64,000 nt of DNA. Origin: an uncultured Planctomycetota bacterium. GTDB lineage: Bacteria; Planctomycetota; PLA2; JAEUHO01. Location of the stretch: NCBI GenBank assembly GCA_963772585.1, contig CAVYXV010000013.1, forward strand, positions 62,555 through 126,554, in the 5' to 3' direction. Both the position numbers and the translations under genes were made by a program. How positions within the stretch are numbered: the stretch's first letter is position 1; every line of letters begins with the position of its first letter. Below the pieces are notes generated by a model. The model saw nothing but the letters and a program-made list of their open reading frames with translations, was not told the origin of the DNA and did no database searches. This document shows, one piece after another, positions 12,022 to 60,763 of this stretch.

Positions 12022-12311
12022 TCCAAGCCACACCGGGATCGGGACGGGCCGTATCCTCGCCGGCCGTATCCCAGGGCACCGTTCGCTTGCGGCCGAAGGC
12101 GCCCTCCCTTCCCCCGAACGGAAGGCGAGGCCGAAACCGGACACCCGCCGCCCCGGTCACTAGGCAGAAAGTCCCGATTGCTCCCGCCGTTCCCCGCGCA
12201 TGCGGCCCGGCTTGCGGGGGTTCCCGACCCCGGATCGGGCGCCGTCGCGAGTGGTATGCTCGCCACCCGATGTTCGCCATGGACTTCGGGATGCACGACC
12301 GGGGGGGTCGA

Positions 12312-12646: not shown

Positions 12647-12761
12647 ATGGCCGCACTCATCCGGGGCGGTGCGCGACCGGGGCAGGACCTCGCCACCGGG
12701 CGTCGCGCTACCGCCGTGAAGCACGCTCCACGCCTCGCAACCGCGAAGGGACAGCCGCACC

Positions 12762-15849: not shown

Positions 15850-16740
15850 ATGGAGAAGCGATGGTTCGGTCGGACCGACATGGAAGTGAGCGTCCTCGGG
15901 TTCGGGGGCGCCGAGATCGGCCTCGAACGGGCATCGGTCGCGACGGCGACCCGCCTGCTCCGCCAGGCGCTCGACGACGGGCTCGACGTCATCGACACGG
16001 CGGAGTGCTACGAGGACAGCGAGACGCTGATCGGCCGCGCGGTCGCCGACCGGCGGAGGGACTTCCACCTCTTCACGAAGTGCGGCCATCCGGAGGGCTT
16101 TGGGACGGAGGACTGGCGCCCGGCATCGATCCTCGCCAGTATCGAGCGGAGCCTGAAACGCCTGCGCACCGACCACGTCGATCTCGTCCAACTCCACAGT
16201 TGCGGGGCGGAGGAGTTGCAGAAGGGCGACGCGATCACCGCGCTTCTCCGCGCGAAGGAGAAGGGTCACACGCGCTACATCGGGTACAGCGGCGACGGCG
16301 AGGCGGCCCGGGTAGCGATCGGGAGCGGCGCCTTCGACGCCCTCCAGACCTCGGTCAGCATCGTGGACCAGGAGGCGATCGAGCGCACGTTGCCGCTCGC
16401 GCGGGAGCGGGGGCTGGGGGTCGTCGCGAAGCGACCCATCGGCAACGCGGTATGGCGCTACGACGGGCCGCCCGACAACGCGTACCACCAGCCGTACTGG
16501 GAGCGATGGCAAGCGCTGGCGTACCCGTTCGCGAAGGAGGGAGACCCCGCCCGCACGGCGCTTCGCTTCACGCTGGGCGTGCCGGGCGTTGCCACGATGA
16601 TCGTCGGGACGAACCGGCCCGGTCGCTGGCGAGAGAACGCCCGGGTCCTCGAGGAGGGGCCCCTGTCCGAGGAGGTCTTCGAGCGCATCCGCGAGCGCTG
16701 GCGGGAGGTCGCCGGCCCCGCGTGGGGCGGCCAGACGTAG
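15850..16740 (+). CDS. aldo/keto reductase
   Basis: GFGGAEIG, DTAECYEDSE, HLFTKCG, LQLHSCG motifs of the AKR superfamily. Confidence 0.85.
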   Translation: MEKRWFGRTDMEVSVLGFGGAEIGLERASVATATRLLRQALDDGLDVIDTAECYEDSETLIGRAVADRRRDFHLFTKCGHPEGFGTEDWRPASILASIERSLKRLRTDHVDLVQLHSCGAEELQKGDAITALLRAKEKGHTRYIGYSGDGEAARVAIGSGAFDALQTSVSIVDQEAIERTLPLARERGLGVVAKRPIGNAVWRYDGPPDNAYHQPYWERWQALAYPFAKEGDPARTALRFTLGVPGVATMIVGTNRPGRWRENARVLEEGPLSEEVFERIRERWREVAGPAWGGQT

Positions 16741-16753
16741 CCCGCGCCCCGCC

Positions 16754-17908
16754 GTGGAGGTCCTCTTCGTCCTCGCCGTAGCGGCGCTCGCCGCTTGGGT
16801 CGCGCTCGGCGTGCTCCGTGCGCGGCGATGGCCCCACGAACACGTCCTCCCGAAGACCGGCGACGCGGCAGGCGCCCCGGTCCACGCCGTCGTCCCGGCC
16901 CGGAACGAGGCCGATCGGCTCCCCGCGACGTTGCCCGCGCTCCTCGCCCAGCGACCGCCGCTCGCATCCGTGACCGTGGTGGACGACCGGTCCTCGGACG
17001 GCACGGCGTCGGTGGCGCGCTCGCTGGCCGCCGGGGCGGAGGTGCCCGTCGGGATCCTCGAGGTCGATCACCTCCCCGCGGGCTGGACGGGCAAGGTCCA
17101 CGCGCTGGCCGAGGGGTGGGCCGCCCTCCGCCGCCGGTCGGCCGAGGACCCGTCTCCCCCGTGGGTCTTCCTGACCGACGCCGACATCCTCCACCCCGCG
17201 GACGGCGTGGCGCGCTTCGTCGCCCAGGCGGCGCGGGGCCCGTTCGACCTCGTGAGCGTGATGGCCAGGCTCCGGACCGAGACGTTCTGGGAGAAGCTCC
17301 TCGCACCCACGTTCGTGTGGTTCTTCCAGGCGATGTACCCCTTCCGCGCCTCGAGCGATCCCGCGTCGAAGGTGGCCAGCGCGGCGGGGGGCGCCGTGCT
17401 CGTCCGGGCGGACGTGTTGGAGCGCGCGGGAGCCTTCATCCCGTGGCGGGATGCCACGATCGACGACCTCGCCCTCGCCCGCCACGCCAAGGACGCGGGC
17501 GCCCGCCTGTGGACGGGGTTCGCCGACGACATCGTCTCCACCCGGGCATGCCCGACGCTCCGGTCCTTCGTGGACATGGTGGCACGCTCCGCGTTCGAGG
17601 AACTCCGCCGCCGCGCCGTTCTCGTCCCCGTGGTGTGGCTTGCGTTGCTCCTCGCCTTCGTCGTGCCGCCGGCGGCCACGGCGGCCGGGGTCCTGGCGGC
17701 GAACGCGCCGCTCCTGGTCGTGGGCGCCGCCGGCTGGTTCCTCCTGCTCGTCCAGGTCCTCCCGTCCTTTCGTCACCACCGGGTGCCGGCCCCGTTCGCG
17801 CTGCTCGTCCCGCTGGCGGCGGTTCTCTACGCGTGGATGACCACGGTCTCGGCGTGGCGGCACCTGCGAGGTACGCGGACTCCCTGGCGTAGCCCGGCGC
17901 CGCAGTAG
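16754..17908 (+). CDS. family-2 glycosyltransferase (HpnB / ceramide-glucosyltransferase-like), membrane
   Basis: N-terminal TM helix. GT2 motifs (AVVPARNEADRL, VVDDRSSDGT, FLTDADI). C-terminal TM helices. Confidence 0.7.
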   Translation: MEVLFVLAVAALAAWVALGVLRARRWPHEHVLPKTGDAAGAPVHAVVPARNEADRLPATLPALLAQRPPLASVTVVDDRSSDGTASVARSLAAGAEVPVGILEVDHLPAGWTGKVHALAEGWAALRRRSAEDPSPPWVFLTDADILHPADGVARFVAQAARGPFDLVSVMARLRTETFWEKLLAPTFVWFFQAMYPFRASSDPASKVASAAGGAVLVRADVLERAGAFIPWRDATIDDLALARHAKDAGARLWTGFADDIVSTRACPTLRSFVDMVARSAFEELRRRAVLVPVVWLALLLAFVVPPAATAAGVLAANAPLLVVGAAGWFLLLVQVLPSFRHHRVPAPFALLVPLAAVLYAWMTTVSAWRHLRGTRTPWRSPAPQ

Positions 17909-17919
17909 AGTCGAGGGCG

Positions 17920-19746
17920 ATGCGTCGATCCCTCCTCCTCCTGTTCGCGTTCGCCCTGCTGTTTCTCGGCCGCAGCGCGGAAGCCGCTCCTCGCGACGAG
18001 CCGCAGGCGAAGGTCCCGCCGGTCGAACGGAACCTCGTGTACGCGACGGCCGGCGACCGGGCGCTGCACCTCGATCTCTACCGCCCGGCGCCGTCCGCTT
18101 CGCCCGCGCCCGTCGTGCTCTGGCTCCACGGCGGCGCTTGGCGCATGGGCAGCAAGCTCTTCTGCCCCATCTTCTGGCTGCGGGACGAGGGCTTCGCCGT
18201 GGCCAGCGTGGACTACCGCCTGAGCGGCGAAGCGACGTGGCCCGCCCAGATCCACGACGTGAAGGCGGCGGTGCGTTGGCTCCGCGCGAACGCGGCGACG
18301 TACGGCTTCGACGCCGGCGCGATCGGCGTGGCCGGCGCGTCGGCGGGGGGCCATCTCGCGGCGCTGCTCGGGACGTCGGGCGGCGTCGAGGCGCTGGAAG
18401 GGGATCTCGGCGACCACGCCGACGTCTCGAGCCGCGTCGCCGCGGTCTACGACATGTTCGGTCCGACCGACCTCGTCCACATCTACGAGGACGCGCGAGT
18501 GGACGGGAAGCTCCCGAAGGAGATGGACGCGGTGGCCGCCTTCCTCGGCGGAGAGAGAGCGGAGAGGAAAGAGAGGGCCCGACTCGCGAGCCCGCTCACC
18601 TGGGTCAGCCCCGACGACCCGCCCTTCCTGATCGTCCACGGAGAAGAGGACTTCCTCGTCCCGGTCGCCCAGAGCGTCCGGCTGGAGAAGGCGCTGAGGG
18701 ACGTCGGCGTCCCCGCGACGCTGGTGGTCATCCCGGGCGCCAGCCACGGCGGGTTGGCGTTCCTCACGAAGACCGAGCGCCATCGCATGCTCGACTTCTT
18801 CCGCCTGCACCTCTTCCACGAAGAGACCGCGGCCGTCCCGAAGGAAGCCGCGCGGATACGCGAGGCGGTCCGGCCCGGCCCCTTCGAGATCGCGCGGTTC
18901 GAAACCCCGCTCCTCGACCCGCTCCGGAAGAAGTCGCTCCCGATCGCCGTCACGTGGCCCGTCCGCAAGGGGCCGTGTCCGGTGATCGTCTTCTCCCACG
19001 GGGCGTTCGGGTCGCGGGAGGGCTATCGCCCGCTCGTCGATCACTGGGCGAGCCACGGGTGGGTCGTCGTGCAGCCCACGCACGAGGACTCCCTCTCGCT
19101 ACGCAAGGGCGCCGGGGCGCGCGCGAACCCCTTCCGGCACTGGCGCTCGCGCATCGGCGACGTGCGGCTCGTGCTCGACGACCTGGAGGCCATCGGCGCG
19201 ATGCTCCCCGGTTTCGAGGGGACCCTCGATACCGGGCACGTCGCCGTGGCCGGCCACTCGTTCGGCGCGCACACGGCCCAACTCCTGGCCGGCGCCACGA
19301 CGCGCGAGGAGGGAGCGACGGAGCGCGGCGTCCATCGGGATGGGCGGCCGAAGGCCTTCCTGCTGATCTCCCCGCAGGGGAGCGGCGACCTCCTCGACGC
19401 GGACTCCTGGACGACGATGACGCCGCCCGTGATGGTGATCACGGGGACGGAGGACAGGGGGCGCGGCGGGCAGCCCTTCAACTGGCGGACCGAGCCGTGG
19501 TCGCGGGCCGCGCCCGGCGAGAAGTTCCTCGCCGTCCTCCAGGGCGCCGACCACGGCTTCGGAGGGATCGCCGGCGCGCACGCCCTCGCGCGGCGCCGCG
19601 ACCCGGCGATGGTCGATCGCGTCCGCGCCCTCTCGCTCCTCTTCCTCGAGGCCGAGGTCCGTGGCGACGAGGCCGCCCGCGCGGCCTTGGCCCAGGCGCC
19701 GCTCCGCGCGGTCCTCGGCCCGGAGGTCCGCCTCTCCGTCCGGTAG
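17920..19746 (+). CDS. secreted tandem alpha/beta-hydrolase (esterase/lipase-type domain + PAF-acetylhydrolase/dienelactone-hydrolase-like domain)
   Basis: Signal peptide. Domain 1: HGGAW...GASAGGHLA...HGEED. Domain 2: VIVFSHGAFGS...VAGHSFGAHTA...GADHGF. Confidence 0.8.
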   Translation: MRRSLLLLFAFALLFLGRSAEAAPRDEPQAKVPPVERNLVYATAGDRALHLDLYRPAPSASPAPVVLWLHGGAWRMGSKLFCPIFWLRDEGFAVASVDYRLSGEATWPAQIHDVKAAVRWLRANAATYGFDAGAIGVAGASAGGHLAALLGTSGGVEALEGDLGDHADVSSRVAAVYDMFGPTDLVHIYEDARVDGKLPKEMDAVAAFLGGERAERKERARLASPLTWVSPDDPPFLIVHGEEDFLVPVAQSVRLEKALRDVGVPATLVVIPGASHGGLAFLTKTERHRMLDFFRLHLFHEETAAVPKEAARIREAVRPGPFEIARFETPLLDPLRKKSLPIAVTWPVRKGPCPVIVFSHGAFGSREGYRPLVDHWASHGWVVVQPTHEDSLSLRKGAGARANPFRHWRSRIGDVRLVLDDLEAIGAMLPGFEGTLDTGHVAVAGHSFGAHTAQLLAGATTREEGATERGVHRDGRPKAFLLISPQGSGDLLDADSWTTMTPPVMVITGTEDRGRGGQPFNWRTEPWSRAAPGEKFLAVLQGADHGFGGIAGAHALARRRDPAMVDRVRALSLLFLEAEVRGDEAARAALAQAPLRAVLGPEVRLSVR

Positions 19747-19809
19747 TCCGCGGGGCCGCGTCCGGGGACGCTGCCGTACGGCCCGAGGGCCTGCCTACAA
19801 TGCGCCGCC

Positions 19810-20313
19810 ATGCGCACGCTCCCCCTGCTCGTCGTCCCTCTGCTCCTGCTGGCCGCCTGCGGCCAGGACACGCCCCCGCCCGCGGTCCGCGAAATGAAGC
19901 CCCCGACGACGGTCTACCGGACGCCGCCGCCGCAGCCCGACGCGGGCAAGGAGCCCTCGTGGGTCACCGTGGACCACATCCTGATCGCCGCCAAGGGCGA
20001 TCGGATCCCGAACCCTCGCCACGCGGACCCCGAGGAGGCGAAGGCCCTCGCCTACCGCCTCCTCGACGAGTTGGAGAAGGGCGCGGACTGGGACGCGTTG
20101 AAGCGGAAGTACTCCGAGGACCCGCCCCCCGGCGGCCCCTACGCCCTGGCGAACCACGGCGTCTCGCCCCGCAAGGGGGAATTCGAGAGGCGCAGCATGG
20201 CCAAGTGCTTCGGCGACGTCGCCTTCTCGCTGGAGATCGGCGAGATCGGCATCGCGGACTACGACCCGAAGACCTGTCCCTTCGGATGGCACATCATCAA
20301 GCGCATCCGCTGA
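19810..20313 (+). CDS. PpiC/parvulin-type peptidyl-prolyl isomerase lipoprotein
   Basis: Lipobox LLLAACG. Parvulin motifs (VDHILIAAKG...GWHIIKRI). Confidence 0.8.
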   Translation: MRTLPLLVVPLLLLAACGQDTPPPAVREMKPPTTVYRTPPPQPDAGKEPSWVTVDHILIAAKGDRIPNPRHADPEEAKALAYRLLDELEKGADWDALKRKYSEDPPPGGPYALANHGVSPRKGEFERRSMAKCFGDVAFSLEIGEIGIADYDPKTCPFGWHIIKRIR

Positions 20314-20428
20314 AGTGGGCGGAAAGGAAGGGTCCGAGGGCGCGAGGGGCCGCGAGCGGCGCAGCCGCCAAGGGCTTCTCGAAGGGCAACGCCGCATCGC
20401 GGTTCGCGGCCAAGGCGCGGCGTGGGCT

Positions 20429-21274
20429 ATGCTCCGTCGCGTGCTCGCCGCGATCCTCGTCGCCGTCCTCCTGTTGGGGATCGGACTCTTCCTCTTCCGA
20501 CGGCCGTTGACCGACGCGATGCTCTTCTACCCGGACCACGGTCAGGGCCGATCGCCCGACGACGTGGGACTCGCGTACGAGTCGCTGTGGGTAGAGGCCT
20601 CCGACGGTGTCCGCACGGAGGCGTGGTGGATCCCGGCGGGACCCGATGCGCCGGTGATCCTGTTCTTCCACGGCAACGCAGGAACCATCTCGGATCGGCT
20701 GGAAAACGCGGCCGAGCTCCACGGACGGGGCGCGAGCGTGCTGCTCGCCGAGTACCGGGGCTACGGAAACAGCGGGGGCAAGCCCTCCGAGCAGGGGTTC
20801 TACCGAGACGCCCGTGCGGCGCTGGCGGTGGCGCGGGAGCGCGCGGGCGATGCACCTGTCGTGGTCTTCGGCCGGTCGCTCGGCGGTGCCGTCGCGATCG
20901 ACGTGGCCTCCCGGGAACGCGTAGACGGGCTGGTCGTCGAATCGTCGTTCACGTCGCTCGGAGAGATGGCGAAGCGGGCGGTGTCGGTGCCGTTCGCGAG
21001 CGTACTGGCCGCGTACGACTTCGATTCCGTGGCGAAGATCGGGAGGGTGACCGTTCCCGTCCTCGTGATCCACGGCGAGGACGACGAGCTGGTTCCCATG
21101 GAAATGGGCCGCCGGCTCTACGAAGCGGCGCGGGGAGCGCCGTGGCGACGCATCCACGCCGTCGAGGGCGGCGACCACGACTCGACGCTCGCCGTCGGCG
21201 GGGAGGCGTACTGGGAAGCGTGGAAGGCGTTCCTGGCGACGGTGGAGCACCGGGCGGAAGAACCCCGGCGCTGA
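20429..21274 (+). CDS. membrane-anchored alpha/beta hydrolase (S9/S33-like, BEM46-type)
   Basis: ATG at 20429 precedes the TM helix (LAAILVAVLLLGIGLFLF). FFHGNAG, GRSLGG, HGEDDELVP motifs. The ORF extension from 20315 is Arg/Gly-rich junk. Confidence 0.75.
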   Translation: MLRRVLAAILVAVLLLGIGLFLFRRPLTDAMLFYPDHGQGRSPDDVGLAYESLWVEASDGVRTEAWWIPAGPDAPVILFFHGNAGTISDRLENAAELHGRGASVLLAEYRGYGNSGGKPSEQGFYRDARAALAVARERAGDAPVVVFGRSLGGAVAIDVASRERVDGLVVESSFTSLGEMAKRAVSVPFASVLAAYDFDSVAKIGRVTVPVLVIHGEDDELVPMEMGRRLYEAARGAPWRRIHAVEGGDHDSTLAVGGEAYWEAWKAFLATVEHRAEEPRR

Positions 21275-21350: not shown

Positions 21351-21713
21351 ATGGCGCGTCAAGGCCGATCCGTTCCGGCGTGGTCGAGCGACCCGGAGAC
21401 CTGTCCCCGTTGCCGGCGCCCCCTCCCCGCCTGCGCCTGCGAGGCTCCGGCGGGGCGGGAGGCGCCCCGCCCCGCGGGCGTCGTGCGGGTGGGCCGACAG
21501 ACGAAGGGCCGAAAGGGCGCGGGCGTGACCGTGGTGACCGGCACGGGACTGGACGCCGCCGCGCTCCGGGACCTGGCGCGCGATCTCAAGGTCCTGTGCG
21601 GGGCCGGAGGCGCGGTGAAAGCGGGCGACATCGAGATCCAGGGCGAGCACCGGGACCGGATCGTGAAGGCCCTCGCGGCCCGGGGATGGACCGTCAAGCG
21701 GGCCGGGGGATGA
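21351..21713 (+). CDS. SUI1/eIF1 (YciH) family translation initiation factor
   Basis: KGRKGAGVTVVTG...GAVKAGDIEIQGEHRDRIVKAL matches the SUI1 domain signature. Confidence 0.85.
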   Translation: MARQGRSVPAWSSDPETCPRCRRPLPACACEAPAGREAPRPAGVVRVGRQTKGRKGAGVTVVTGTGLDAAALRDLARDLKVLCGAGGAVKAGDIEIQGEHRDRIVKALAARGWTVKRAGG

Positions 21714-21828
21714 GTCCGTGGGCCCCGGAGCCGCGCCTCGCGCCGAACGGGGGCGCTTGATTGTCTCGCCTTCCCCGGCACAATATGCGCGCACTCTCCG
21801 TTCCGAACGTGGGGGAAACGTCCACTCG

Positions 21829-22836
21829 ATGCGCTGGCTGCTCCCGTTCCTCGTGCTGACCTTCCTGCTCCCCGTGCCCGCCCGGGCGGGGGAGGAGGAG
21901 GAGTCCTCGCAGCAGGCCCCCGCCCCCGAGGCTCCGTCCGAGGAAGCGGTGGAAGAGCCGCCGTCCACCGGCCTCGTCGTCAAGGACGTGGACGTCAAGA
22001 TGGAGAAGGTCGAGAAGGTCAAGCGCCGGCTCCAGGGCAGCCACATCGTGCGCGACCACGTCGTCGTCGGCTGGAACTGGGAGGTCGAGGTCTCGCTGGA
22101 GCGGACCCCCGAGGCGGAGTCCGGTCGGTGGATCGTCTCCGGGGACGTCTTCGACAAGCTCAAGGCGGCTTCCCAACGCGTGTCGGACTGGCACTGGGGG
22201 AAGAAGTCGAAGCTGCGGGTGCGGATCGTCGCGCAGGGCTACCTGCCGGCGGACAAGGGCGACATCCTCTCCTCGGTGCCGCTCATGGCCGCTCGCACGC
22301 TGCGCGACGACATCCAGATCGCGCCCCCGCCGGAACCGAAGCCGGAGCCCGAACCGGAACCCGAGCCCGAAGCCACGCCCCCGGCCCCCGAGCCCGTCCG
22401 GGAGAAGCCCAAGCCGAAGCGCAGCAACCCGCAGGACCCGCGCCTCAGCCGCAAGGAGAGCATCGACCTGGTCGCGAGCTGGGCGAAGGAGCGGGAAGAC
22501 ATCAAGACGCGGATCGCGCGCTACCGCACCGTCATCAAGGGCGCGGAGGGGCAGGGGCACGAGGACAAGACGAAGCAGGCGACCCGGCTGCTCGACGGGG
22601 CGGCGAAAGCCCTCGAGGACTCCACGGGGCCCTACCTCGCGTGCCAGGCGCTCGTCGATGCGGGCGAGCGCGTCCTGCTGCGGCTGCGCCTCGAGGTCAA
22701 CACGCAGCACTTCAAGGCCGAGCGGGACCTCCTGTCCGTGGACGAGCTGCTGCTCGTCTTCACGGGTCCCGGGAGCGGCGGCGGCACCGACGACGGCGGC
22801 GGTGACCAGGGCGGCGGGACCGGCGAGGGCGGGTAG
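21829..22836 (+). CDS. secreted hypothetical protein with an acidic and (PE)n linker
   Basis: ATG at 21829 followed by a signal peptide (MRWLLPFLVLTFLLPVPARA). PEPKPEPEPEPEPEA low-complexity linker. No recognisable domain. Confidence 0.5.
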   Translation: MRWLLPFLVLTFLLPVPARAGEEEESSQQAPAPEAPSEEAVEEPPSTGLVVKDVDVKMEKVEKVKRRLQGSHIVRDHVVVGWNWEVEVSLERTPEAESGRWIVSGDVFDKLKAASQRVSDWHWGKKSKLRVRIVAQGYLPADKGDILSSVPLMAARTLRDDIQIAPPPEPKPEPEPEPEPEATPPAPEPVREKPKPKRSNPQDPRLSRKESIDLVASWAKEREDIKTRIARYRTVIKGAEGQGHEDKTKQATRLLDGAAKALEDSTGPYLACQALVDAGERVLLRLRLEVNTQHFKAERDLLSVDELLLVFTGPGSGGGTDDGGGDQGGGTGEGG

Positions 22837-22863
22837 CCGCGGCGCAGGCCGCGGTGTCCCATC

Positions 22864-23205
22864 TCACCGGTGGTCTTCGCCCGGGACGCACACGCAGCCC
22901 CCGATCCACAGGCGATCGAGGAACGAGGACGGACCGTGCGGCCGGTACCGCACGAGCTCGCGCAAGCGTTCGGGCGAGACGTCGAGATCGAGGGGGGACG
23001 TGCCATCGGCGAGGTTGGACGGCGGCGCTTCGCGCGCGCCCGCGCGCATCCACCGTCCCGGCCTCGCGGGGGTTCCTTTTCGCGCCGCAGCGACGGCGCG
23101 GGACGGTTCGAGCGCGCCCCGGTCCAGGGGAAGGCGCGCCCGGCAGGCCGCGAGGCCGAAGAAGAGGGCCGCCGCCCCTGCGACTCGGATCCGCCGTCGT
23201 GTCAT
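22864..23205 (-). CDS. small hypothetical lipoprotein
   Basis: Lipoprotein signal MTRRRIRVAGAAALFFGLAAC. Occupies an otherwise empty gap between convergent genes. Composition is otherwise Arg/Pro-rich, so this is uncertain. Confidence 0.35.
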   Translation of the reverse strand: MTRRRIRVAGAAALFFGLAACRARLPLDRGALEPSRAVAAARKGTPARPGRWMRAGAREAPPSNLADGTSPLDLDVSPERLRELVRYRPHGPSSFLDRLWIGGCVCVPGEDHR

Positions 23206-23312
23206 GCCCGGCCTCCCGGCTCCATCCTACGCGGCGGATGACCGTTCGTTGGAAGCCACGCCCCCCGGCCGGTCCCCCCGGGGCGGGGAAGGGGCGCTGG
23301 TACCCTCCGGGC

Positions 23313-26300
23313 ATGCTGGGTCGCCTTCCCAAGGTCGGGTCGTCGGTCGCGGGACTCCTCCTCCTCCTCGCCCTGGGCCTCGCCGGCGGGGGCGCCCGCG
23401 CCGGCGAGGAGACGCCCCTGGAGGCGGGCCTCGCCGTGGTGGACCTCACCCCCGCGCCCGGGGTGGCGCTGGGCGGGTACGCGGCGCGGTGGGGTCGCCC
23501 GAGCCTCGCCGTCCACGACGCGGTCGAGGCGCGCGCCCTCGTGCTCCGCCAGGGCGACCGGAGCGTCGCCCTCGTCTCGGTGGATCTCGTGGGCGTGAGC
23601 CGACGCGTGACCGAGCTCGTGCGACGCCGCGTCGCCGATCTCGGATTGGACGACGTCGTGCTCACCGCGACCCACACCCACGCAGGCCCCGGGGGCTTGA
23701 CGACCGTCCCTCTCTGGCGAACGTCCATGGGCGCCTTCGACCGCGGTCTCTTCGCGCGCACGGCCGCGCGGATCGAGGCTGCCATCCGACGCGCCTACGC
23801 GGATCTCGACCCGGCGGTGATCCGTGCAGGCCGCACGTCCGGCGAACGCCTGCGCGGCGCGGTGCGCCGCCGCGCCGAGGTCGGCGTCGAACCCGACGCC
23901 TCGCTGGGCGTGATCCGGATCGACCGACCCGACGGTTCTCCCCGCGGCGCGGTCGTGCACTTCGGCGCCCACCCGACGCTGATCGGGGCGGGAGTGCGGG
24001 CGATCAGCGCGGGGTGGCCGGGGGCGGCGCGTCGCGAGGTCGAACGACGGCTGCCCGGCGTGACCGCAATCTTCCTCCAGGGCGCGGAGGGCGACGTCTC
24101 CCCCGTTACGCCGCCGAACACGTCGCCCGACGTGTGGGCGAAGGTGGCGGCGTACGGACGCCTGGTGGGCGACGCGGCCATCGAGGAGTACGGCCGCCTC
24201 GGCGAGCGGGACCGGGAGCGCATCGGACTCGTCGTCGAAGGCACGCGCATCGCGCACGTGCCGACGGTGGCCGCCGCGCTCCTCGGCGGCTCGCCCGAGA
24301 GCGCGTTGCTGGGTTCCTGGTCCGTTCCCGTCGCCCGCCTACGCCTCGGAACGCTGGAGCTCGTGACGGTGCCGGGGGAACCGACGAGCGCCGTCGCGAA
24401 ACGGATGGGTGCGGGCTCCGCGCGTTGGATCCTCGCCTGCGCCCAGGACCACCTCGGCTACTTCGTGGATCGGCCGACGTGGCGAGCGGCCCGCGACATG
24501 GAGGCGGAGCTCTGCCTGTTCGGACCGGGGATCGCCGACACCCTCACCGCGCTCGCGGACGGCGATCCGCCCCCCCTCGCCGAGGCACCTCCCGGGGCCC
24601 CGACCGCGGACGTCCCCGTCGAACCGGTGGTCCTGCGCGCCCCGACGGGCGGCGGCCCCCGGGGGCTCGGGCGCGAGCACGGGCGACGACTGGCCGTGCC
24701 GATCCGGGGGCTGCTCGCCGCGGCCGAGCGCGCGCTCGAGGACGAGGCCCTCGGCCACGGAGCCGGGCTGCTCCTCGCGCCGGTAGGCCTGGCCACCGGG
24801 CTCTCGCCCCGCGACATGGTGATGCCGTTGCTGGTCCGCGCGGTCCGGAAGCTGCAGCGCCACGCGCCCCCGGCGTTGCTCGACGAGATGGAGGCCGTCG
24901 CCGGGGGTGCCGGCGTTCCGTTCGACGCGATCCTGCTGGAGAACATGTTCCTCACGCTCGCCGAACAGCCCGACAAGCGAGCGCTCCTCGCACTCCCCGC
25001 CCGGTGCACGAACCTCGTCGCGGTCGGCGATGCGACGAGCATGGGCCAGCTCATCCACGGCTCGACGCTCGACTGGGGCATGCACGGCGTCCTCGCCGAT
25101 CGCGTGGCGATCCTCGTGATGGAGCCGGATACGGGGCATCCGTTCGTCAGCGTCACCTGGCCGGGCATGGTCGGCACCCTGCGCGCGATGGGCGCCCAGG
25201 GGATCGCGCTGACGGAGGAGTCCTGCGCGGCGCCCGACGACACGACCACCGACGGCGTCCCGGTGAACCTCCTCATGCGCGACGTCGTGCAGCACGCCTC
25301 CTCCCTCGAGGACGCCGTGCGTCGCGTGGTCGATGCGCCGGGCACGTGCGGCTACAAGATCACCGTCTCCGACGGCCGCGAACTCGACGCCCGGGTGGTC
25401 GAGGTGACGGCGCACCACCACCACGTACGCGCGCCCCGGGGCGGTCTCCTCTACGGATGCGATCCGGAGAGCCCCTGCGTAGGGGGCGACTGCGATCCCC
25501 GCATTCCTCGCAACGACGGTTCGTCGGCACGGCGGTACCCGGTCGTGCGAACCCGGCTCGAAGGGCGGCGCGAACGGATCCGGGTCACGGACGTCGAGGC
25601 GGCGCTGTCGTCGCGCGACGGAGGCGTCCTGAACGGCGGAACGCTCCTCGCGTGCGTCTTCGAGCCGCAGCTCCTCCGCTTCCACGTGGCCCGCGGCGAT
25701 GGCCTGGACGCGCGCGCGGGACGGCTCGCGTTCGTCGCGTACGATCTCGCGCCCCTGCTCTCGCCCGCGGCGCGCGAGCGATACACACCGCCCTGGCCCG
25801 TGACGGACACCGGCGACATCCGGGCGCGAGTGAAGTTGGAGGACTTCCTCGGTATGCGGGTCGAGGAGCTGTCCATCCCCTCGCCGGTGCGGTCCGGGTC
25901 CGCGCGAAACGACCGGTTCACGGCCGAGCTCTACACGCCGAAGGATCCGATCGGCGTCGTGATCCAGCTCCCGCACTGGAAGGACCCGTCGGGAGGGCAG
26001 GGGCAGAAGCTCGTCGCCGTGGGCCTCGCGCGCGAAGGCATCGCCTCGGTCCTCCTCCCGCTACCGTGGCAGTATGGACGGACCCCCGACGGGGCCTCCT
26101 CGGGGGAACGCACGCTATCGCGGGATTTGGCGAGGACGAGGGAGGCCGCGTTCCAGGGCGTCGCGGACGTGCTTCGCGTGGGCCTCTGGCTGGAGCGCGA
26201 GCGCGGCTACCCGCCGTCCCGGCAGGCTCTCCTCGGCCTCAGCCTCGGCGGCCACATCGCCTCGCTCGCCTATGGGGCGACCCCGGACCGCTTCGCCGGC

Positions 26301-26693
26301 GCGGCGCTGCTCCTGGCGGGAAGCCACCGGCAGGGCGCGATCTTCCGGAAGAACGGCGTCACGGACTCGATCCTCGCGCGCCTGCGGGAGCGGGATGTCA
26401 CCTTCGAGGAGGCGCGGGGCTTCTTGCTCCCCATCGATCCCGCCGCGCTCGCTCGGCCGGCGCTGGCCGACCGCGTCCTGATCGTGGCGGGCACGGAGGA
26501 TCCGGTGGTCCCGCGGGAGGCGGTCGAGGCGCTCGCCCAAGCGTGGGGTGGCGCCCGCGTGTCGTGGTTCGAGGGCGATCACTACAGCGTGATCCGGCAC
26601 GTCGCCGACATCATCCACGCCGTCACGGAACACGTGCGGCGTCGTTTCGCGGCCTCCGACCCCACGGACGGCCGAGCCGAGATGCGCCGCTAA
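23313..26693 (+). CDS. secreted three-domain hydrolase: neutral/alkaline ceramidase-like N domain, C45 acyl-CoA:6-APA acyltransferase-like Ntn domain, and alpha/beta hydrolase
   Basis: Signal peptide from ATG 23313. Ceramidase motifs (VDLTP...GGYAAR...HDAVEARALVL...ATHTHAGPGG). C45 region with nucleophile context ARCTNLVAVGDATSMGQLIHGSTLDWG. C-terminal GLSLGGHIA...VAGTEDPVVP alpha/beta hydrolase. Confidence 0.8.
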   Translation: MLGRLPKVGSSVAGLLLLLALGLAGGGARAGEETPLEAGLAVVDLTPAPGVALGGYAARWGRPSLAVHDAVEARALVLRQGDRSVALVSVDLVGVSRRVTELVRRRVADLGLDDVVLTATHTHAGPGGLTTVPLWRTSMGAFDRGLFARTAARIEAAIRRAYADLDPAVIRAGRTSGERLRGAVRRRAEVGVEPDASLGVIRIDRPDGSPRGAVVHFGAHPTLIGAGVRAISAGWPGAARREVERRLPGVTAIFLQGAEGDVSPVTPPNTSPDVWAKVAAYGRLVGDAAIEEYGRLGERDRERIGLVVEGTRIAHVPTVAAALLGGSPESALLGSWSVPVARLRLGTLELVTVPGEPTSAVAKRMGAGSARWILACAQDHLGYFVDRPTWRAARDMEAELCLFGPGIADTLTALADGDPPPLAEAPPGAPTADVPVEPVVLRAPTGGGPRGLGREHGRRLAVPIRGLLAAAERALEDEALGHGAGLLLAPVGLATGLSPRDMVMPLLVRAVRKLQRHAPPALLDEMEAVAGGAGVPFDAILLENMFLTLAEQPDKRALLALPARCTNLVAVGDATSMGQLIHGSTLDWGMHGVLADRVAILVMEPDTGHPFVSVTWPGMVGTLRAMGAQGIALTEESCAAPDDTTTDGVPVNLLMRDVVQHASSLEDAVRRVVDAPGTCGYKITVSDGRELDARVVEVTAHHHHVRAPRGGLLYGCDPESPCVGGDCDPRIPRNDGSSARRYPVVRTRLEGRRERIRVTDVEAALSSRDGGVLNGGTLLACVFEPQLLRFHVARGDGLDARAGRLAFVAYDLAPLLSPAARERYTPPWPVTDTGDIRARVKLEDFLGMRVEELSIPSPVRSGSARNDRFTAELYTPKDPIGVVIQLPHWKDPSGGQGQKLVAVGLAREGIASVLLPLPWQYGRTPDGASSGERTLSRDLARTREAAFQGVADVLRVGLWLERERGYPPSRQALLGLSLGGHIASLAYGATPDRFAGAALLLAGSHRQGAIFRKNGVTDSILARLRERDVTFEEARGFLLPIDPAALARPALADRVLIVAGTEDPVVPREAVEALAQAWGGARVSWFEGDHYSVIRHVADIIHAVTEHVRRRFAASDPTDGRAEMRR

Positions 26694-26882
26694 GGGCCCG
26701 TCCGTGAACAAGTGTCGCCCTTTGCACTCGCCTTCACGCCGCCTGCGGCCCTTCCTCGGTCGCGAATTCCTCAGCGTAGCTGGCGCTACGCCTCCGGATC
26801 CGCTCCCTCGTCATGACCACATCCGACGCGAATCCGAGCGTCCTTCTCAACACGCATTCCTCGGCCAGGCCCTAACGGAGAG

Positions 26883-27332
26883 TCAGTCGGGACGGTAGGC
26901 GCCGTAGCGCCGGAGATTCGTGCTCGCCGTGGCGGCCTGGGCGCTGAGCAGGGCGCGCACGCGCCGCGCGAGGGGACGGTTCAGGGCGTCCAGGGTCCGG
27001 GCGACCACCTCGCGCTCCGAAGCGACCAGCTCGTCGAGCAGGGCTTGGGTGTCCGCTTGCGCCGCCGTCTCGAAGGCGCCGAGCCAGGGCTGGTGGAAGG
27101 CGCCGGCCGGGACCCCTTCGGGCTGCGGCAGGCCGCCGAGGCTCTCGATGGCCTCGCTGAGTTGCCGGACGACCGCCCGGCGCTCGCTCTCGGACGCCAG
27201 GAACGCCAGCGACAGACGGCGGTCGTGGGCGCACTCGCGGGCTCGGCCGTACGCCCGCTCACCGGCCTTGGAGAGTTGCAGAAGGTCTTGCAGGACGTCG
27301 AGGGTCTCTTGCGTGGTCAGCCGGGTCATCAT
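26883..27332 (-). CDS. DUF2383 (PA2169-family) four-helix-bundle ferritin-like protein
   Basis: ATG-ATG at 27332/27329 with GGAGG upstream. Conserved LxxLLQLSKDGExxY and RRxxxAxxLxxLG motifs of the TIGR02284 family. Paralogue at 37427-37870. Confidence 0.7.
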   Translation of the reverse strand: MMTRLTTQETLDVLQDLLQLSKAGERAYGRARECAHDRRLSLAFLASESERRAVVRQLSEAIESLGGLPQPEGVPAGAFHQPWLGAFETAAQADTQALLDELVASEREVVARTLDALNRPLARRVRALLSAQAATASTNLRRYGAYRPD

Positions 27333-27446
27333 GGTCGCGGGCGCCTCCGTGAATGCGCCGGCGAGTCGCCGCCGCAAGGGCACGTCGTCCTCTGCATGCT
27401 CGTCCCGCACGACGCACACGCCGTGCCGCCTCGCCCGCATCATCAT

Positions 27447-29227: not shown

Positions 29228-29261
29228 CTCGAAGGCGCCTTCCCGTTCGGACGTCCGCGAC

Positions 29262-29310
29262 GGCCACGAACGGACGTCCCGTCGCGCGCTTCGCGGGGAG
29301 TGCAGGCACG
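29262..29310 (+). promoter_or_regulatory. copy (b) of the recurrent GG-N10-GC motif plus an inverted partner, upstream of the sigma-54 activator gene
   Basis: ccacgaacGGacgtcccgtcGCgcgcttcgcggggagtgcaggc, then acggccgttcgtg as the inverted half. Confidence 0.35.
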
Positions 29311-29449
29311 ACGCCAACGGCCGTTCGTGCATAGTGCGGGCTGGATGCGGGATTCCCCCACGCCAACCTCTGGACGGCGGCTTGCGTACGACACCACGGG
29401 GCCACCCGCGCCCGTGCGCGCCGGTGTACTCTCGCGCTCCTGGGATTGG

Positions 29450-30889
<1,440 letters not shown>

Positions 30890-31013
30890 CCAGGCCACCC
30901 GCACGCGTTCGACGCTTGCGCGCGACGACCTCCCGAGCGCGTGCGACCCGGGTGGGATGCGACCGCCCGGTGCCCGCGTCCCACCACGGAGCCCTGCGCG
31001 GCGGGGGACAATG

Positions 31014-31032
31014 GGCCCGCTCATCGCAGTCG
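31014..31032 (+). promoter_or_regulatory. candidate sigma-54 promoter for the EncFtn-encapsulin operon
   Basis: tGGGCCCgctcaTCGCA matches the -24 GG / -12 GC elements with exact 10-nt spacing. The -12 GC lies 31 nt upstream of ATG 31061. A sigma-54 activator gene is immediately upstream. Confidence 0.4.
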
Positions 31033-31060
31033 AGGGAGCGCGTCCCAAGGAGGTCCCGAC

Positions 31061-31447
31061 ATGTCGGAAAGCAGCGGCGGTCTTCACGAGGCGAAGAGCG
31101 ATCTCGGCCCGGAGACCGTGGACCGGCACCGGGCGATCGCGTCCCTGATGGAAGAACTCCAGGCGATCGACTGGTACGAGCAACGCGTCCAGGCGACGCA
31201 GGACGAAACGCTCGGCGCGATCCTCGCGCACAACCGGGACGAGGAGAAGGAGCACGCCGCCATGCTGCTGGAGTGGCTTCGGCGCCATGATCCCGCCCTG
31301 GACGGCGAGTTGAGGACCTACCTCTTCCGCGACGGAGACATCACGACCTTGGAAGGGGCGGGAGCCGAGGGGGCCGACGACACGGGCAGTACGCCGCCCC
31401 GAACGACCCCGGACGGTTCGCTGGGCATCGGGGACATGGGAGGATGA
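31061..31447 (+). CDS. encapsulated ferritin-like cargo protein (EncFtn) with a C-terminal encapsulin targeting peptide
   Basis: AAGGAGG RBS. EncFtn ferroxidase motif (IDWYEQRV...ILAHNRDEEKEHAAMLLEWLRR). C-terminal ...DGSLGIGDMGG resembles the SLGIGxL cargo-loading peptide. Confidence 0.85.
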   Translation: MSESSGGLHEAKSDLGPETVDRHRAIASLMEELQAIDWYEQRVQATQDETLGAILAHNRDEEKEHAAMLLEWLRRHDPALDGELRTYLFRDGDITTLEGAGAEGADDTGSTPPRTTPDGSLGIGDMGG

Positions 31448-31463
31448 GAAGGAACCGGATGCA

Positions 31464-31590
31464 GTGTTTCGGCCGGCTGCGGAGCCACGACGCGCCTTGC
31501 CCCTTCGACGGGCTCACGGCGGCTGCGCCGCTCGCGGCTCCTCGCGAGGCCTCGGACCCTCGCCCCATTCCCTCAGACCCTCCGAGAGGA
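31464..31590. repeat. third member of the 165-bp repeat family, between encFtn and the encapsulin shell gene
   Basis: Shares ttcggccggctgcgg.(g/a)ccacga at its 5' end and cctcgg.ccctcg.ccc.tt.c.tca...ccctc.gagag.a at its 3' end with the tandem units at 12312-12646. Its 3' end supplies the shell-gene RBS (gagagga). Confidence 0.6.
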
Positions 31591-31597
31591 GACGACG

Positions 31598-32404
31598 ATG
31601 TTGTTCCTGCGGCGTGAACAGGCCCCGGTCTCGGAGGCCGCGTGGGCCCGGATCGACGCGGAGGCGAGACGCACGTTGCGCCTCCGCATGGGCGCTCGCA
31701 AGTTCTTCGACGTCCTCGGTCCGAAGGGGTGGGCCGACGCGTGCGTGAATCTCGGACGCAAGGCCGAGACCACGGGATTCGACCCCGGCGTGGACGCCGC
31801 AACGCGGCTCGTCCAGCCGCTGCTGGAGCTCCGTGTCCCGTTCACGCTGTCGCGCGCGGACCTGGATGACGTGGACCGGGGTTGCCCGAACCCCGATCTC
31901 GATCCCGTGATCGACGCGGCGAAGAGCCTCGCTCGCGCCGAAGGCCGGGTGCTCTTCCACGGCCACGCGGACTCGGGCGTGGTCGGCATGGCGGACGGCG
32001 GCACGCACGATCCGCTGCCGCTCCCCGAAGATCCGGAAGGCATTCCGGGCGCGGCGGCCGCCGCGGTCAACCTGCTCCGGGACGAGGGCATCGAAGGGCC
32101 CTACGGCATCGCGCTCGGGTCCCGGCCCTACACCGGCCTCGTGCAGGCGCCCGCCTCCGGCGGCTATCCCGCTCTCGATCGGCTTCGCAACGTCCTCAGC
32201 GGCCCGGTCGTCTGGGCGCCGTCGCTCGAGGGCGCGGTGGTGCTGAGCATGCGCGGCGGCGACTTCGAGTTGCACGTCGGCCAGGACGCCTCGATCGGCT
32301 TCCACTCGCACACGCCGGAAGACGTCCACTTCTTCCTGGTGGAGACCTTCACGATGCTGAATCTCACGCCCGAAGCGGCGATCGGCCTCCAGTACGGAGG
32401 ATAG
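31598..32404 (+). CDS. family-1 encapsulin nanocompartment shell protein (linocin M18 / CFP29 type)
   Basis: MLFLRREQAPVSEAAW...GRKFFDV, ELRVPFTL, RGCPNPDL, DEGIEGPYGIALG, GGDFELHVGQDASIGF, VHFFLVETFT. These are collinear with the T. maritima and M. xanthus encapsulin sequences. Confidence 0.9.
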   Translation: MLFLRREQAPVSEAAWARIDAEARRTLRLRMGARKFFDVLGPKGWADACVNLGRKAETTGFDPGVDAATRLVQPLLELRVPFTLSRADLDDVDRGCPNPDLDPVIDAAKSLARAEGRVLFHGHADSGVVGMADGGTHDPLPLPEDPEGIPGAAAAAVNLLRDEGIEGPYGIALGSRPYTGLVQAPASGGYPALDRLRNVLSGPVVWAPSLEGAVVLSMRGGDFELHVGQDASIGFHSHTPEDVHFFLVETFTMLNLTPEAAIGLQYGG

Positions 32405-35561: not shown

Positions 35562-35605
35562 CCACGAACTGGCGTTGAATCGCGCGCTTCGCGGGGAATG
35601 CAGGC
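35562..35605 (+). promoter_or_regulatory. copy (c) of the recurrent motif: CCACGAACTGGCGTTGAATCGCGCGCTTCGCGGGGAATGCAGGC
   Basis: Lies between the LigD phosphoesterase stop and the BON gene stop. TGGCGT-N5-ATCGC resembles sigma-54 -24/-12 with a 9-nt spacer. Its 3' half is near-identical to the copy at 29281. Confidence 0.35.
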
Positions 35606-37242
35606 TAGTCACCGAGCCCGGCCTCTGCGTCCGTAGAGGAAGGGGTCCCTTCCTCGTCCTTCGGCAGCGGCGGCAGCTTCGGAGGATTCACGTCCAGGTC
35701 GTCCACGACCCATCCGGCTCCCGCTTCGTACGCATTCATGATCGCGGCGTGCTTCTCGCTCCAGCTGTCCACCTCGCCCGAGAGACGCACCACGCCGTTC
35801 TCGACCGCGACGTCCACGTCCATCAGGTCCACGAACGGGCTCCACCAGATCTCCTGTTCCACGCGGCTCTTCAGCTTCCGGTCGCTGATCGGCACGCTGT
35901 AAGACGACGGCTGATACCACCTGACGTTCGCCCACGCGAGATCGTCCACGTACGGTCCGTAGACCAGCGGCGTGTAGTGATCGCGGACGTCGAGGGCGTT
36001 GTCCACGTCTTGGACCCCGCGAGCCCTGGAAACCAGGTCCTCGGCCCGCATCTTCTCCCAATAGGTGTTGACGGTCCCGTCCAGGCGAATCTTCCCGTCG
36101 TCAGCCGTGATCTCGATGTCGTGGGAGTCCACGATGGGATCTCGTACCACGTTTCCGAGAGCGCGCATCTCGAGCTCGTCGTCGGCGACGTGCGGGGGAC
36201 GCACCTTCACGCGATTCCACACCCCGAGAACCCCGGTCACGTTCCGGGCGTCGGCGCCTGCGCAGCGCCGCGCCTTCAGATTGTCCACCGTACCTCGGAG
36301 GGTCACGAAACCGTCCTGCAACGTCGGCTCGATGTCGAACGAATGGACCCGCGGATCGACGGAGAGCGCATCGATGACCGCCGCCTTCACGTCCTCAACG
36401 GCACGCCGGGCCGGTCTTCCTCTCACGTCGGGGCCTTCGGTCCAGTCGCGGACGGAGACGCCGCTCACGTCCACGCTCTTCACCCCCATGACGTAGGCAT
36501 CACCCTCGGCTCTGTCCTTCTCCGCAGCGCTACGGACCACGCCGACGAGGCGCACGCCACCGTCTTCCACATCGACCTGGAGCAGACGGTCATCGACACG
36601 AACGTCCCAATCCAGGGAACGGGCGATCTCGCTTTGGATCTCGCCGTCCGAGCGAGGTGTCATGAGATTCACGGACATCGCGTCCTCGACGTCCAGCACG
36701 CCGTCTACGCTCTTCGCGACCTTCCGTGCGAGCTGGTCCTCGCGCCAGGAGTCCACCGCGCCGTGCAGGGTGACGACCCCGCCCCCGACGTTCACCTTCA
36801 ACTCGTAGGCGTCCGTTGCAGGATCCGCGTGGAGGGCCTCCTGGACGTCCTTCTTGACGATGGCGTCGGATCGCACGGAATCCGGATCGATCTTCAGGCG
36901 ATTCACCACGCCTCGCACGCCACGCATGGCCTTGGCGATGCGGACGGCCCGCTCTTTCTCCAGGAGGCTGTCCACCTCCCCCTCGAGGGTGACGATGCCC
37001 CCGACGACGCGGACGTCCACGTCGTCGAGCGTGACGACGGGATCGTGGGCGATCTGGTCCTCGACGGCGATCAGCACGCTCGGGTCGTCGAGCGAGGGCG
37101 TATTCGGCTCGTCGGCGAAGGCAGGGCCGGACCGGACGACGACGACGGCCGCGGCGAGAACGGCAAGGACCCCGACGAAGGCCGGTCCCCCCATGACGCG
37201 AAGACGTCGCGTCGACGCGTGGATGCGGTTGTCGTATCTCAT
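35605..37242 (-). CDS. secreted protein with about six BON (OsmY-like) domains
   Basis: Signal peptide. Repeated ~70-aa units with the BON signature (V.V.GG.VTL.G.V.S...R..A....GV..V.N.L.V). Confidence 0.85.
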   Translation of the reverse strand: MRYDNRIHASTRRLRVMGGPAFVGVLAVLAAAVVVVRSGPAFADEPNTPSLDDPSVLIAVEDQIAHDPVVTLDDVDVRVVGGIVTLEGEVDSLLEKERAVRIAKAMRGVRGVVNRLKIDPDSVRSDAIVKKDVQEALHADPATDAYELKVNVGGGVVTLHGAVDSWREDQLARKVAKSVDGVLDVEDAMSVNLMTPRSDGEIQSEIARSLDWDVRVDDRLLQVDVEDGGVRLVGVVRSAAEKDRAEGDAYVMGVKSVDVSGVSVRDWTEGPDVRGRPARRAVEDVKAAVIDALSVDPRVHSFDIEPTLQDGFVTLRGTVDNLKARRCAGADARNVTGVLGVWNRVKVRPPHVADDELEMRALGNVVRDPIVDSHDIEITADDGKIRLDGTVNTYWEKMRAEDLVSRARGVQDVDNALDVRDHYTPLVYGPYVDDLAWANVRWYQPSSYSVPISDRKLKSRVEQEIWWSPFVDLMDVDVAVENGVVRLSGEVDSWSEKHAAIMNAYEAGAGWVVDDLDVNPPKLPPLPKDEEGTPSSTDAEAGLGD

Positions 37243-37426
37243 CGGTCGTACTCCTCTCTGACGCTGCCCGCGTCACGACACGCAGGGGGCGCAACCCGCA
37301 TGCCGCCGTCTCCGGGCAGGGGGGCGTGTCCCGGGAAGGGTGAATCGGAGGGAGAGCCACCAGGGGTTTCGGAACCCCCGGCACGGACCGCAAGACGACG
37401 GGGGGAGGGCCTGGACCCTCCGACGT

Positions 37427-37870
37427 TCAGGCGCGGTGCGCCGTGAGCCCCTCGAATCGGCGCAGATTCGCCTTTGCTCCGGCCGCCTGGCTCGTGACGA
37501 GGCCGCGAATGTCGTCGCCGAGAGGCGCCGCCATGGCCTCGTCGTAGTGCTTCACCGCGGCACGTTCTGCACGGACGATCTCCTCGAGCAGCGTCTTGTC
37601 GGCGCTCCCGGAGAGCGTGCTGCGTGCCTCCAGCCACGTCCTGCCAAAGGCCCCCGGCACCGTCCCTCGCTCCGCCGGTCTCCCGCCCAGCTCCTCGATC
37701 TTGTCCACGAGTTGTTGCGCCGCGATCGCGCACGACTCGAGACTCGTCTCGAACGCCGCCTTCAGCGTCTCGTCGTCGGTGATCTCCTTGGCCCGCCCGA
37801 AGGTCTCTTCGCCGTCCTTCGAAACGTGGAGCAGATCGCCCAGGAGACTGATGGTCGCCGCCTCGTCCAT
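37427..37870 (-). CDS. DUF2383 (PA2169-family) four-helix-bundle protein, second paralogue
   Basis: LLGDLLHVSKDGEETFGRA, RAERAAVKHYDEA; same family as 26883-27332. Confidence 0.7.
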   Translation of the reverse strand: MDEAATISLLGDLLHVSKDGEETFGRAKEITDDETLKAAFETSLESCAIAAQQLVDKIEELGGRPAERGTVPGAFGRTWLEARSTLSGSADKTLLEEIVRAERAAVKHYDEAMAAPLGDDIRGLVTSQAAGAKANLRRFEGLTAHRA

Positions 37871-58013: not shown

Positions 58014-58024
58014 AGACCAAAGCC

Positions 58025-60691: not shown

Positions 60692-60763
60692 GCGCCGTCA
60701 AGGGACACGTCCTACGGGGCGACAACCGGTTCCGCGAACGAGAACGCCGGGAGACCATCGAGC

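Follow-up and report, generated by a model that had tools for sequence, protein, structure and literature searches.

The tri-domain gene and its modules

The stretch analysed here (the window, 64,000 nucleotides) comes from an uncultured Planctomycetota bacterium (assembly GCA_963772585.1, contig CAVYXV010000013.1, positions 62,555 to 126,554 of the forward strand) and carries at 23313..26693 (+) a gene of 1,126 codons plus stop whose product joins three hydrolase modules in one chain. These are, in order, a short neutral-ceramidase-like domain, a C45-type N-terminal nucleophile (Ntn) hydrolase domain and an ABHD18-type α/β-hydrolase domain. An earlier note on this DNA had described the gene as a single secreted open reading frame (ORF) combining ceramidase-like, C45 and α/β-hydrolase modules. 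Its coordinates, its coding signal and a signal-peptide-like N-terminus, read by eye, bear this out, and domain hidden Markov models place all three modules above curated cut-offs (gathering scores for Pfam, curated family values for NCBIfam), in agreement with the predicted folds.

The limits of the gene rest on its translation, on the GC content of third codon positions (GC3) and on identity to a known protein. At 70-77% GC the surrounding DNA holds long ORFs in several frames; one of them, a 1,349-codon ORF at 22658-26707 (+) that overlaps the whole gene, was rejected as Arg/Pro/Gly-rich out-of-frame nonsense, a high-GC artefact which shows that ORF length alone is uninformative at such GC. 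The frame of 23313-26693, translated from the Met at 23313, gives a normal protein, and the 1,126-residue product is identical to a database protein (P0001) encoded on a 292-kb contig. GC3 rises from 0.54-0.76 (with second-position GC of about 0.8) to 0.86-0.96 right at 23304-23313, then stays at or above 0.78 (mostly 0.86-0.96) up to the stop at 26693, both domain junctions included. Because the profile switches there, we place the start at the ATG at 23313. An upstream GTG at 22854 was rejected by the same profile and by the N-termini of the homologues; the chosen start position and a signal-peptide-like N-terminus are common to all six close homologues (6/6).

The first 30 residues (23313..23402, +) were recognized by eye and from equivalent N-termini in homologues, and comprise MLGRLPKVGSS / VAGLLLLLALGLAGGG / ARA↓GE: a basic n-region, a Leu/Ala-rich core and an A-R-A↓G cleavage motif. 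The tri-domain protein thus appears to be exported by way of a signal-peptide-like segment of Sec type; its nine Cys residues are consistent with an oxidising compartment, and an N-terminal signal or anchor is present in every architecture of the relatives collected below.

The first module (aa 33-415; 23409..24557, +) is a short neutral-ceramidase-like zinc amidase domain by Pfam match, profile alignment, Foldseek and residue census. It matches Pfam PF04734 (Ceramidase_alk) over aa 39-266 with 65.1 bits against a cut-off of 32.1, and scores 50.3 bits with the NCBIfam neutral-ceramidase equivalog NF041649, far below the cut-off of 1,200; by sequence it is a member of the ceramidase domain superfamily and not of the orthologous enzyme group. 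A profile built from the six closest homologues aligns with the neutral ceramidases of Pseudomonas aeruginosa (PaCDase) and human in two blocks (E 3e-29 and 5e-23), and Foldseek finds the ceramidase fold for the first full-length model (2zws, E 1e-19; human 4wgk, E 2e-17). The putative metal ligands His121, His220, Glu356 and Tyr383 align with PaCDase His97, His204, Glu411 and Tyr448, while His123 and Arg187 align with His99 and Arg160, and all six are invariant in the six close homologues. We take the four PaCDase residues to be zinc ligands, and His99 and Arg160 to be catalytic.

Compared with the neutral ceramidases (PF04734; PaCDase 2zws/2zxc; human ASAH2 4wgk), the catalytic-domain fold is the same, the G-D-V-S-P motif is shared, and PaCDase is likewise exported. 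However, the window domain spans only about 380 residues as against about 500, with some 60 fewer between the two aligned blocks. The C-terminal ceramidase domain found no Pfam match at E<=1 in the window protein; where neutral ceramidases have that domain, a linker and the C45 module directly follow the catalytic ceramidase-like domain. Moreover, the window domain is joined to two further hydrolases.

The linker (aa 416-447; 24558..24653, +) is rich in Pro and Ala, as delimited by a low pLDDT (AlphaFold's per-residue confidence) at residues 420-445 and by alignment with stand-alone C45 genes, in which it occupies the place of the signal peptide carried by the stand-alone homologues. It leads into the C45-type Ntn-hydrolase proenzyme domain (aa 448-830; 24654..25802, +), which comprises a helical α-part (aa 448-545), a flexible pre-cleavage loop (aa 553-561) and then the β-part. 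Both domain libraries recognize it: PF03417 (AAT/C45) with 31.4 bits against 23.2 over aa 595-703, and NCBIfam NF040521 (C45_proenzyme) with 125.7 bits against 85 over aa 505-786. The first full-length AlphaFold model was discarded for the C45 core, where pLDDT fell to 20-30 (aa 544-631). A replacement model of aa 441-1126, built with 30 sequences of stand-alone and fused C45 relatives, has a pLDDT of 91.1 and a predicted template modelling score (pTM) of 0.92. Besides the C-terminal tail, its sole low-confidence segment is the loop at aa 553-561, directly before Cys565; Cys565 stands where strand 567-572 begins, and Asp587 closes the strand that follows. An Ntn-hydrolase proenzyme is laid out in this way.

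The predicted autoproteolytic site, Arg564↓Cys565 (25002..25007, +), draws on conservation of the Cys, on the alignment with NAAA and on the model. Cys565 aligns with residue 1 of the NAAA β-subunit, is invariant in the six close homologues, and is kept in 17/17 stand-alone C45 proteins, 11/13 tri-domain proteins and 31/47 two-domain proteins; this residue check located the conserved nucleophile that the earlier note had expected behind a self-cleavage site. Foldseek assigns the aa 441-1126 model to the Ntn-hydrolase fold with the penicillin acyltransferase IAT as top match, and a sequence profile of the middle domain reaches IAT at E 2e-10, acid ceramidase at 5e-8 and NAAA at 8e-7. By sequence and model, then, the middle domain is a C45 enzyme about equally similar to the lysosomal lipid amidases (acid ceramidase, NAAA) and to penicillin acyltransferase.

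The domain differs from both groups. Identity to IAT (MEROPS C45; 2x1c/2x1d) is 14-16%; IAT is cleaved at Gly↓Cys, whereas the site predicted here is Arg↓Cys; IAT uses acyl-CoA, a donor that would presumably be unavailable to an exported protein; and the window module has another enzyme on either side of it. Acid ceramidase (ASAH1) and NAAA (MEROPS C89; 5u7z, 5u81, 6dxw, 6dy2) are lysosomal, unlike the window protein, which has no saposin partner and in whose subclade the Arg159-type residue is Ser584.

The C-terminal module (aa 831-1115; 25803..26657, +) is an α/β-hydrolase domain of ABHD18 type. It scores 42.9 bits against a cut-off of 21 with PF09752 (ABHD18) over aa 882-994, in an alignment that covers only profile positions 94-200 of 351. 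The triad of Ser977 (within G-L-S-L-G), Asp1063 and His1090 aligns with that of 4z8z, and a Ser/Asp/His triad is conserved in 48/48 hydrolase domains. Animal ABHD18 deacylates cardiolipin stepwise (PMC12173737); that lipase is mitochondrial, whereas the window domain is exported and fused to an Ntn hydrolase, and the bacterial structure 4z8z has no known function, nor does any bacterial member have a known substrate. The aa 441-1126 model predicts with confidence that the C45 and hydrolase domains form a single rigid body.

Relatives, architectures and the origin of the fusion

A word-indexed search of 5.8 billion proteins returned five additional full-length proteins, 45-59% identical, that carry these three Pfam domains as well, and a profile search run exhaustively over 1.84 billion cluster representatives added more, giving 13 full-length tri-domain proteins in total, 27-67% identical per domain. 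To catalogue their architectures, 179 collected proteins were scored with domain models built from the alignment. Thirteen are tri-domain, 47 combine ceramidase with C45, 25 combine C45 with hydrolase, and 2-3 combine ceramidase with hydrolase; the ceramidase-like domain stands alone in 66 and the C45 domain in 17. Some of the shorter entries, on contigs of 2-3 kb, are probably fragments of tri-domain proteins. Every tri-domain relative with a named source genome comes from a Planctomycetota metagenome-assembled genome (MAG), and the form occurs in four such MAGs that are species-representative genomes (loci L002, L003, L004 and L007).

The modules are also linked as separate genes. Among 80 loci retrieved through ceramidase-domain sequence patterns, 18 have a C45 module either joined to the ceramidase-like gene or directly downstream of it, the downstream genes often overlapping. 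Eight loci hold a ceramidase+C45 fusion, four of them being tri-domain loci; in 10, from Omnitrophota and Planctomycetales, the ceramidase-like gene is followed by a separate, often overlapping C45 gene with its own signal peptide; one such Omnitrophota pair is found at L047 (9911-11188 and 11185-12408). An α/β-hydrolase gene stands beside the ceramidase-like gene in three more loci (two Nitrospirae MAGs and one Thermodesulfobacteriota MAG). Linkage of the ceramidase-like gene to an α/β-hydrolase gene, and not to C45, is seen at L048 501-3598 and L029 531-3574 (both Nitrospirae MAGs) and at L035 2032-4424; in L048 and L029 a conserved 220-residue gene without a Pfam or NCBIfam family lies between the two.

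The tri-domain proteins are mutual nearest relatives in each of the three domains, which suggests one old fusion, while the repeated fusion and adjacency of the modules suggest one functional unit. Together the sequences indicate that functionally linked proteins were fused once, in a planctomycete lineage. The earlier note knew of no polypeptide combining all three modules. The combination is indeed rare, but it is not unique, given the 13 tri-domain proteins and the many genomes in which the modules are pairwise fused or adjacent.

We give scarcely any credence to the alternative that the long ORF is not genuine, three genes having been joined by a frameshift or mis-assembly. High-GC DNA does yield long spurious ORFs, and the modules are separate adjacent genes in distant relatives, as the earlier note had foreseen for an erroneous fusion; this separation reflects evolutionary fusion, however, and not error. 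Full-length tri-domain relatives occur in independent assemblies with the same junctions, the coding signal runs unbroken across both junctions, the ceramidase-C45 junction is a Pro/Ala linker in place of the C45 signal peptide, and C45 and hydrolase are modelled as one unit with the high pTM given above. Our literature searches found no published description of the tri-domain fusion or of a bacterial ceramidase-C45 pair. Each module comes from a known family and the pieces are already annotated by automatic pipelines; it is the architecture that is undescribed.

A candidate self-cleaving lipid deacylase

The reading we prefer, to which we would give about an even chance on the strength of sequence comparison and analogy, is that the protein is an exported multi-site acyl hydrolase, a self-cleaving lipid deacylase derived by evolutionary fusion of three enzymes that cooperate elsewhere as separate or pairwise-fused proteins. 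Following Sec export, the C45 module would cut the polypeptide to which it belongs at Arg564↓Cys565, in the manner of IAT, acid ceramidase and NAAA. In acid ceramidase, autocleavage takes place in front of Cys143, and the same Cys then hydrolyses ceramide (PMC5915598). Cleavage would yield two chains of about 57 and 61 kDa, aa 31-564 (ceramidase-like domain and C45 α-part) and aa 565-1126 (C45 β-part and esterase), which the Ntn fold would hold together. The Ser977 esterase would then release ester-linked fatty acids, and the Cys565 amidase amide-linked ones, from extracytoplasmic lipids; the zinc amidase would also remove amide-linked acyl chains, provided that Met396, a substitution in its site, still permits catalysis.

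Every characterized relative acts on fatty-acyl amides or esters, and the substrate class is guessed on that ground. Our best guess by analogy comprises ceramide-type sphingolipids, acyloxyacyl aminolipids (ornithine lipids, lipid A), or N-/O-acylated lipids generally. The role of a processive degrader of sphingolipids or N-acyl amides, put forward in the earlier note, is likewise plausible as a hypothesis.

Several observations weigh against this reading. The full-length model has a pTM of 0.43, so that any placement of the N-terminal domain against the rest would be tentative. The window and the other tri-domain loci differ in their surrounding genes, among which no lipid-pathway genes occur. 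The window protein has Met396 where 112 of 129 ceramidase-like domains of the family carry Tyr; the position aligns with PaCDase Tyr460, the second active-site Tyr, which is thus not kept here. A local frameshift as the cause of Met396 was rejected, as no alternative frame restores the Tyr.

The C45 site is derived as well. Stand-alone C45 relatives carry C...R-N-x-D-W and G-x-N-x-x-G motifs (Arg in 16/17, Asn in 15/17, and the Asn of the second motif in 16/17), whereas the window subclade has S584-T585-L-D587-W in place of R-N-x-D-W and Gly627 in place of the G-x-N-x-x-G Asn; Asp587 is retained. In acid ceramidase, Arg159 matters for activity and Glu225 contributes only its backbone amide (PMC5915598). 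By motif comparison, the Gly627 position would correspond to that of the Glu225 backbone amide; no counterpart was assigned to Asn320 or Arg333. Owing to Met396 and this derived C45 site, the degrader role is weakened for the window copy.

The ceramidase-like module is not constant either. Its site residues are kept in 66/66 stand-alone proteins, but are lost in 3/13 tri-domain proteins and in about 12/47 (roughly a quarter) of the two-domain proteins. Moreover, P0176, a 698-residue C45+hydrolase protein (locus L082, 10001-12097), is a syntenic orthologue of the tri-domain proteins without a ceramidase-like domain and with no room for one. Compared with tri-domain L001 (10001-13399), L082 has the same flanks, with ADSL, PDH E1 and DUF1284 upstream and an extracytoplasmic function (ECF) sigma factor and PilM downstream, and the position of P0176, between DUF1284 upstream and the ECF sigma factor downstream, is that of the tri-domain genes in L001, L003 and L007. 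The ceramidase module must therefore have been lost or gained between orthologues. Together with the losses at the ceramidase site, P0176 suggests that the three activities are not all indispensable. As judged from sequences and models, the C45+hydrolase pair looks like the core and the ceramidase-like domain like the more dispensable part; in the sequences, only the esterase triad is universal among the relatives.

These losses bear on an alternative that we consider unlikely, namely that the esterase, perhaps with C45, is the working enzyme, and that the ceramidase-like domain is decaying or serves a non-catalytic purpose such as lipid binding or scaffolding. The universal triad set against the ceramidase-site losses in tri-domain and two-domain proteins, the absence of the module from P0176, the replacement of a conserved Tyr by Met396 and the case of P0014, P0018 and P0028, in which no module has diverged as far as the ceramidase-like one, all speak for it. 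Conversely, the window copy retains the four putative metal ligands together with His123 and Arg187, has normal coding statistics, and shares 48-56% identity with the five tri-domain proteins nearest to it (<=44% with more distant ones), while the intact sites of the stand-alone members suggest that the fold is normally an enzyme.

A second alternative keeps the enzymes and changes the substrate: a soluble N-acyl compound (an N-acyl-homoserine lactone, a β-lactam-like antibiotic or a lipopeptide), on which the protein would act as an acylase plus lactonase/esterase, to quench quorum signals or to detoxify. Small acyl-amides are substrates of C45 enzymes, Foldseek ranks IAT first, and the protein is predicted to be exported. 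In addition, the best NCBIfam match of the C-terminal domain, over 245 residues, is the putative quorum lactone hydrolase RcgR (NF047337), as it is for P0176; the window domain's score of 49.8 bits lies far below the cut-off of 182, however, such that the domain is not a member of that family. The zinc amidase and C45 modules are similar to ceramidases, acid ceramidase and NAAA, enzymes of long-chain lipids, and no signalling or antibiotic genes are conserved nearby. We therefore regard a soluble substrate as quite improbable, and retain lipids as the preferred targets.

Host, neighbouring genes and significance

The host is a planctomycete: the best named matches of the window's HtrA protease, 59-64% identical, are proteins of Phycisphaerae and Planctomycetota MAGs. 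The earlier note had assumed sphingolipid-producing relatives, an assumption in need of correction, since the host is no classical sphingolipid producer; sphingolipid production in Planctomycetota is predicted only, on the basis of Spt-like genes seen in MAGs (PMC11334938). Ornithine lipids, which carry one amide-linked and one ester-linked fatty acid, are produced by planctomycetes (PMC12493201).

Upstream of the tri-domain gene, a run of abutting or overlapping genes at 16601-21274 (+) encodes a family-2 glycosyltransferase, a 617-residue double α/β-hydrolase, a peptidyl-prolyl isomerase and a Hydrolase_4 esterase; the 617-residue protein combines a BD-FAE/hormone-sensitive-lipase-like domain with a chlorophyllase/PAF-acetylhydrolase-like domain. 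The gene directly upstream (21667-22836, +) specifies a secreted protein without a Pfam family, with a signal peptide, an acidic stretch and Pro/Glu/Lys repeats weakly resembling a TonB linker. A 476-bp gap with terminator-like hairpins separates these upstream genes from the tri-domain gene, and the hydrolase-rich neighbourhood is not common to the other tri-domain loci. Elsewhere, L001, L003, L007 and L082 share a housekeeping-type synteny, and the ceramidase-C45 gene pairs of Omnitrophota are flanked by a CCA/poly(A) polymerase gene and lytB. Gene context was accordingly set aside as a clue to the substrate, as no context examined names one. An Rfam scan of the window found no RNA families.

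The same surroundings bear on the suggestion, also made in the earlier note, of an antagonistic toxin that targets the lipids of competitors to which it is delivered. Other bacteria do have lipase and amidase effectors, and a secreted multi-hydrolase would fit that general pattern. Nothing at these loci speaks in its favour, however: the N-terminus is of Sec type only, the window and the related loci hold no immunity gene, secretion-system gene or toxin-delivery domain, and the housekeeping-type synteny is unlike that of mobile effector loci. We hold such a role to be very unlikely.

The remaining neighbours concern other functions. Directly downstream, on the opposite strand, lies the first of two DUF2383 paralogues (26883-27446 and 37427-37894, both -), a family which we take to belong to the ferritin-like superfamily. 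Further along, three genes adjoin one another with no DNA between them, for a sigma-54 enhancer-binding protein (29228-30889, +), an EncFtn-like ferritin cargo (30890-31447) and an encapsulin shell of the Linocin_M18 family (31448-32404); the whole (29228-32404, +) looks like an iron-storage nanocompartment operon, apparently under a sigma-54 activator. A bacterial homologue of archaeo-eukaryotic release factor 1 (12720-13940, +; baeRF family 3/7, 165 bits) adjoins genes for a ZnuA zinc-binding protein and a pseudouridine synthase. Large signalling and envelope proteins comprise an FHA-GAF-adenylate cyclase (1430-3862, -), a Ser/Thr kinase with AAA_16 and TPR domains (8266-12156, -), a Ser/Thr kinase with WD40 repeats (43921-47679, +) and a protein with six BON domains (35605-37272, -). 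The last genes of the window (57905-63998, +) encode a CusB-like membrane-fusion protein with extra heavy-metal-binding and YHS domains and, after it, an AcrB/CusA-type pump that runs off the edge.

Returning to the lipid deacylase, we tentatively advance a broader possibility, in which we have appreciably less confidence than in the enzyme itself: that the three modules constitute an unrecognized and widespread bacterial system (Planctomycetota, Omnitrophota, Hydrogenedentota, Nitrospirota) that dismantles, outside the cytoplasm, multiply acylated amide lipids such as sphingolipids, ornithine-type aminolipids or lipid A. In that case the tri-domain protein would be its fully fused, self-cleaving two-chain form, in which neutral- and acid-ceramidase-type amidases cooperate.

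The fusion is an uncharacterized architecture assembled from known parts, and no new kind of system; the signs of partial decay in the window copy temper its significance. What is surprising is the physical coupling of a neutral-ceramidase-type fold to an acid-ceramidase-type fold, and the breadth of the gene linkage. Should the substrate prove to be a signal molecule or an antibiotic, we would be dealing with an unusual quenching enzyme of double action. How bacteria degrade amide-linked lipids (sphingolipids, ornithine lipids, lipid A) has been little charted beyond a few pathogens, and three hydrolase families linked by repeated fusion and adjacency across several uncultured phyla offer a concrete candidate pathway, with perhaps the first bacterial relatives of acid ceramidase and NAAA to have a lipid-related partner. 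With the fused protein, a single construct would bring within reach each of the three activities, the self-processing and the order in which acyl chains are removed.

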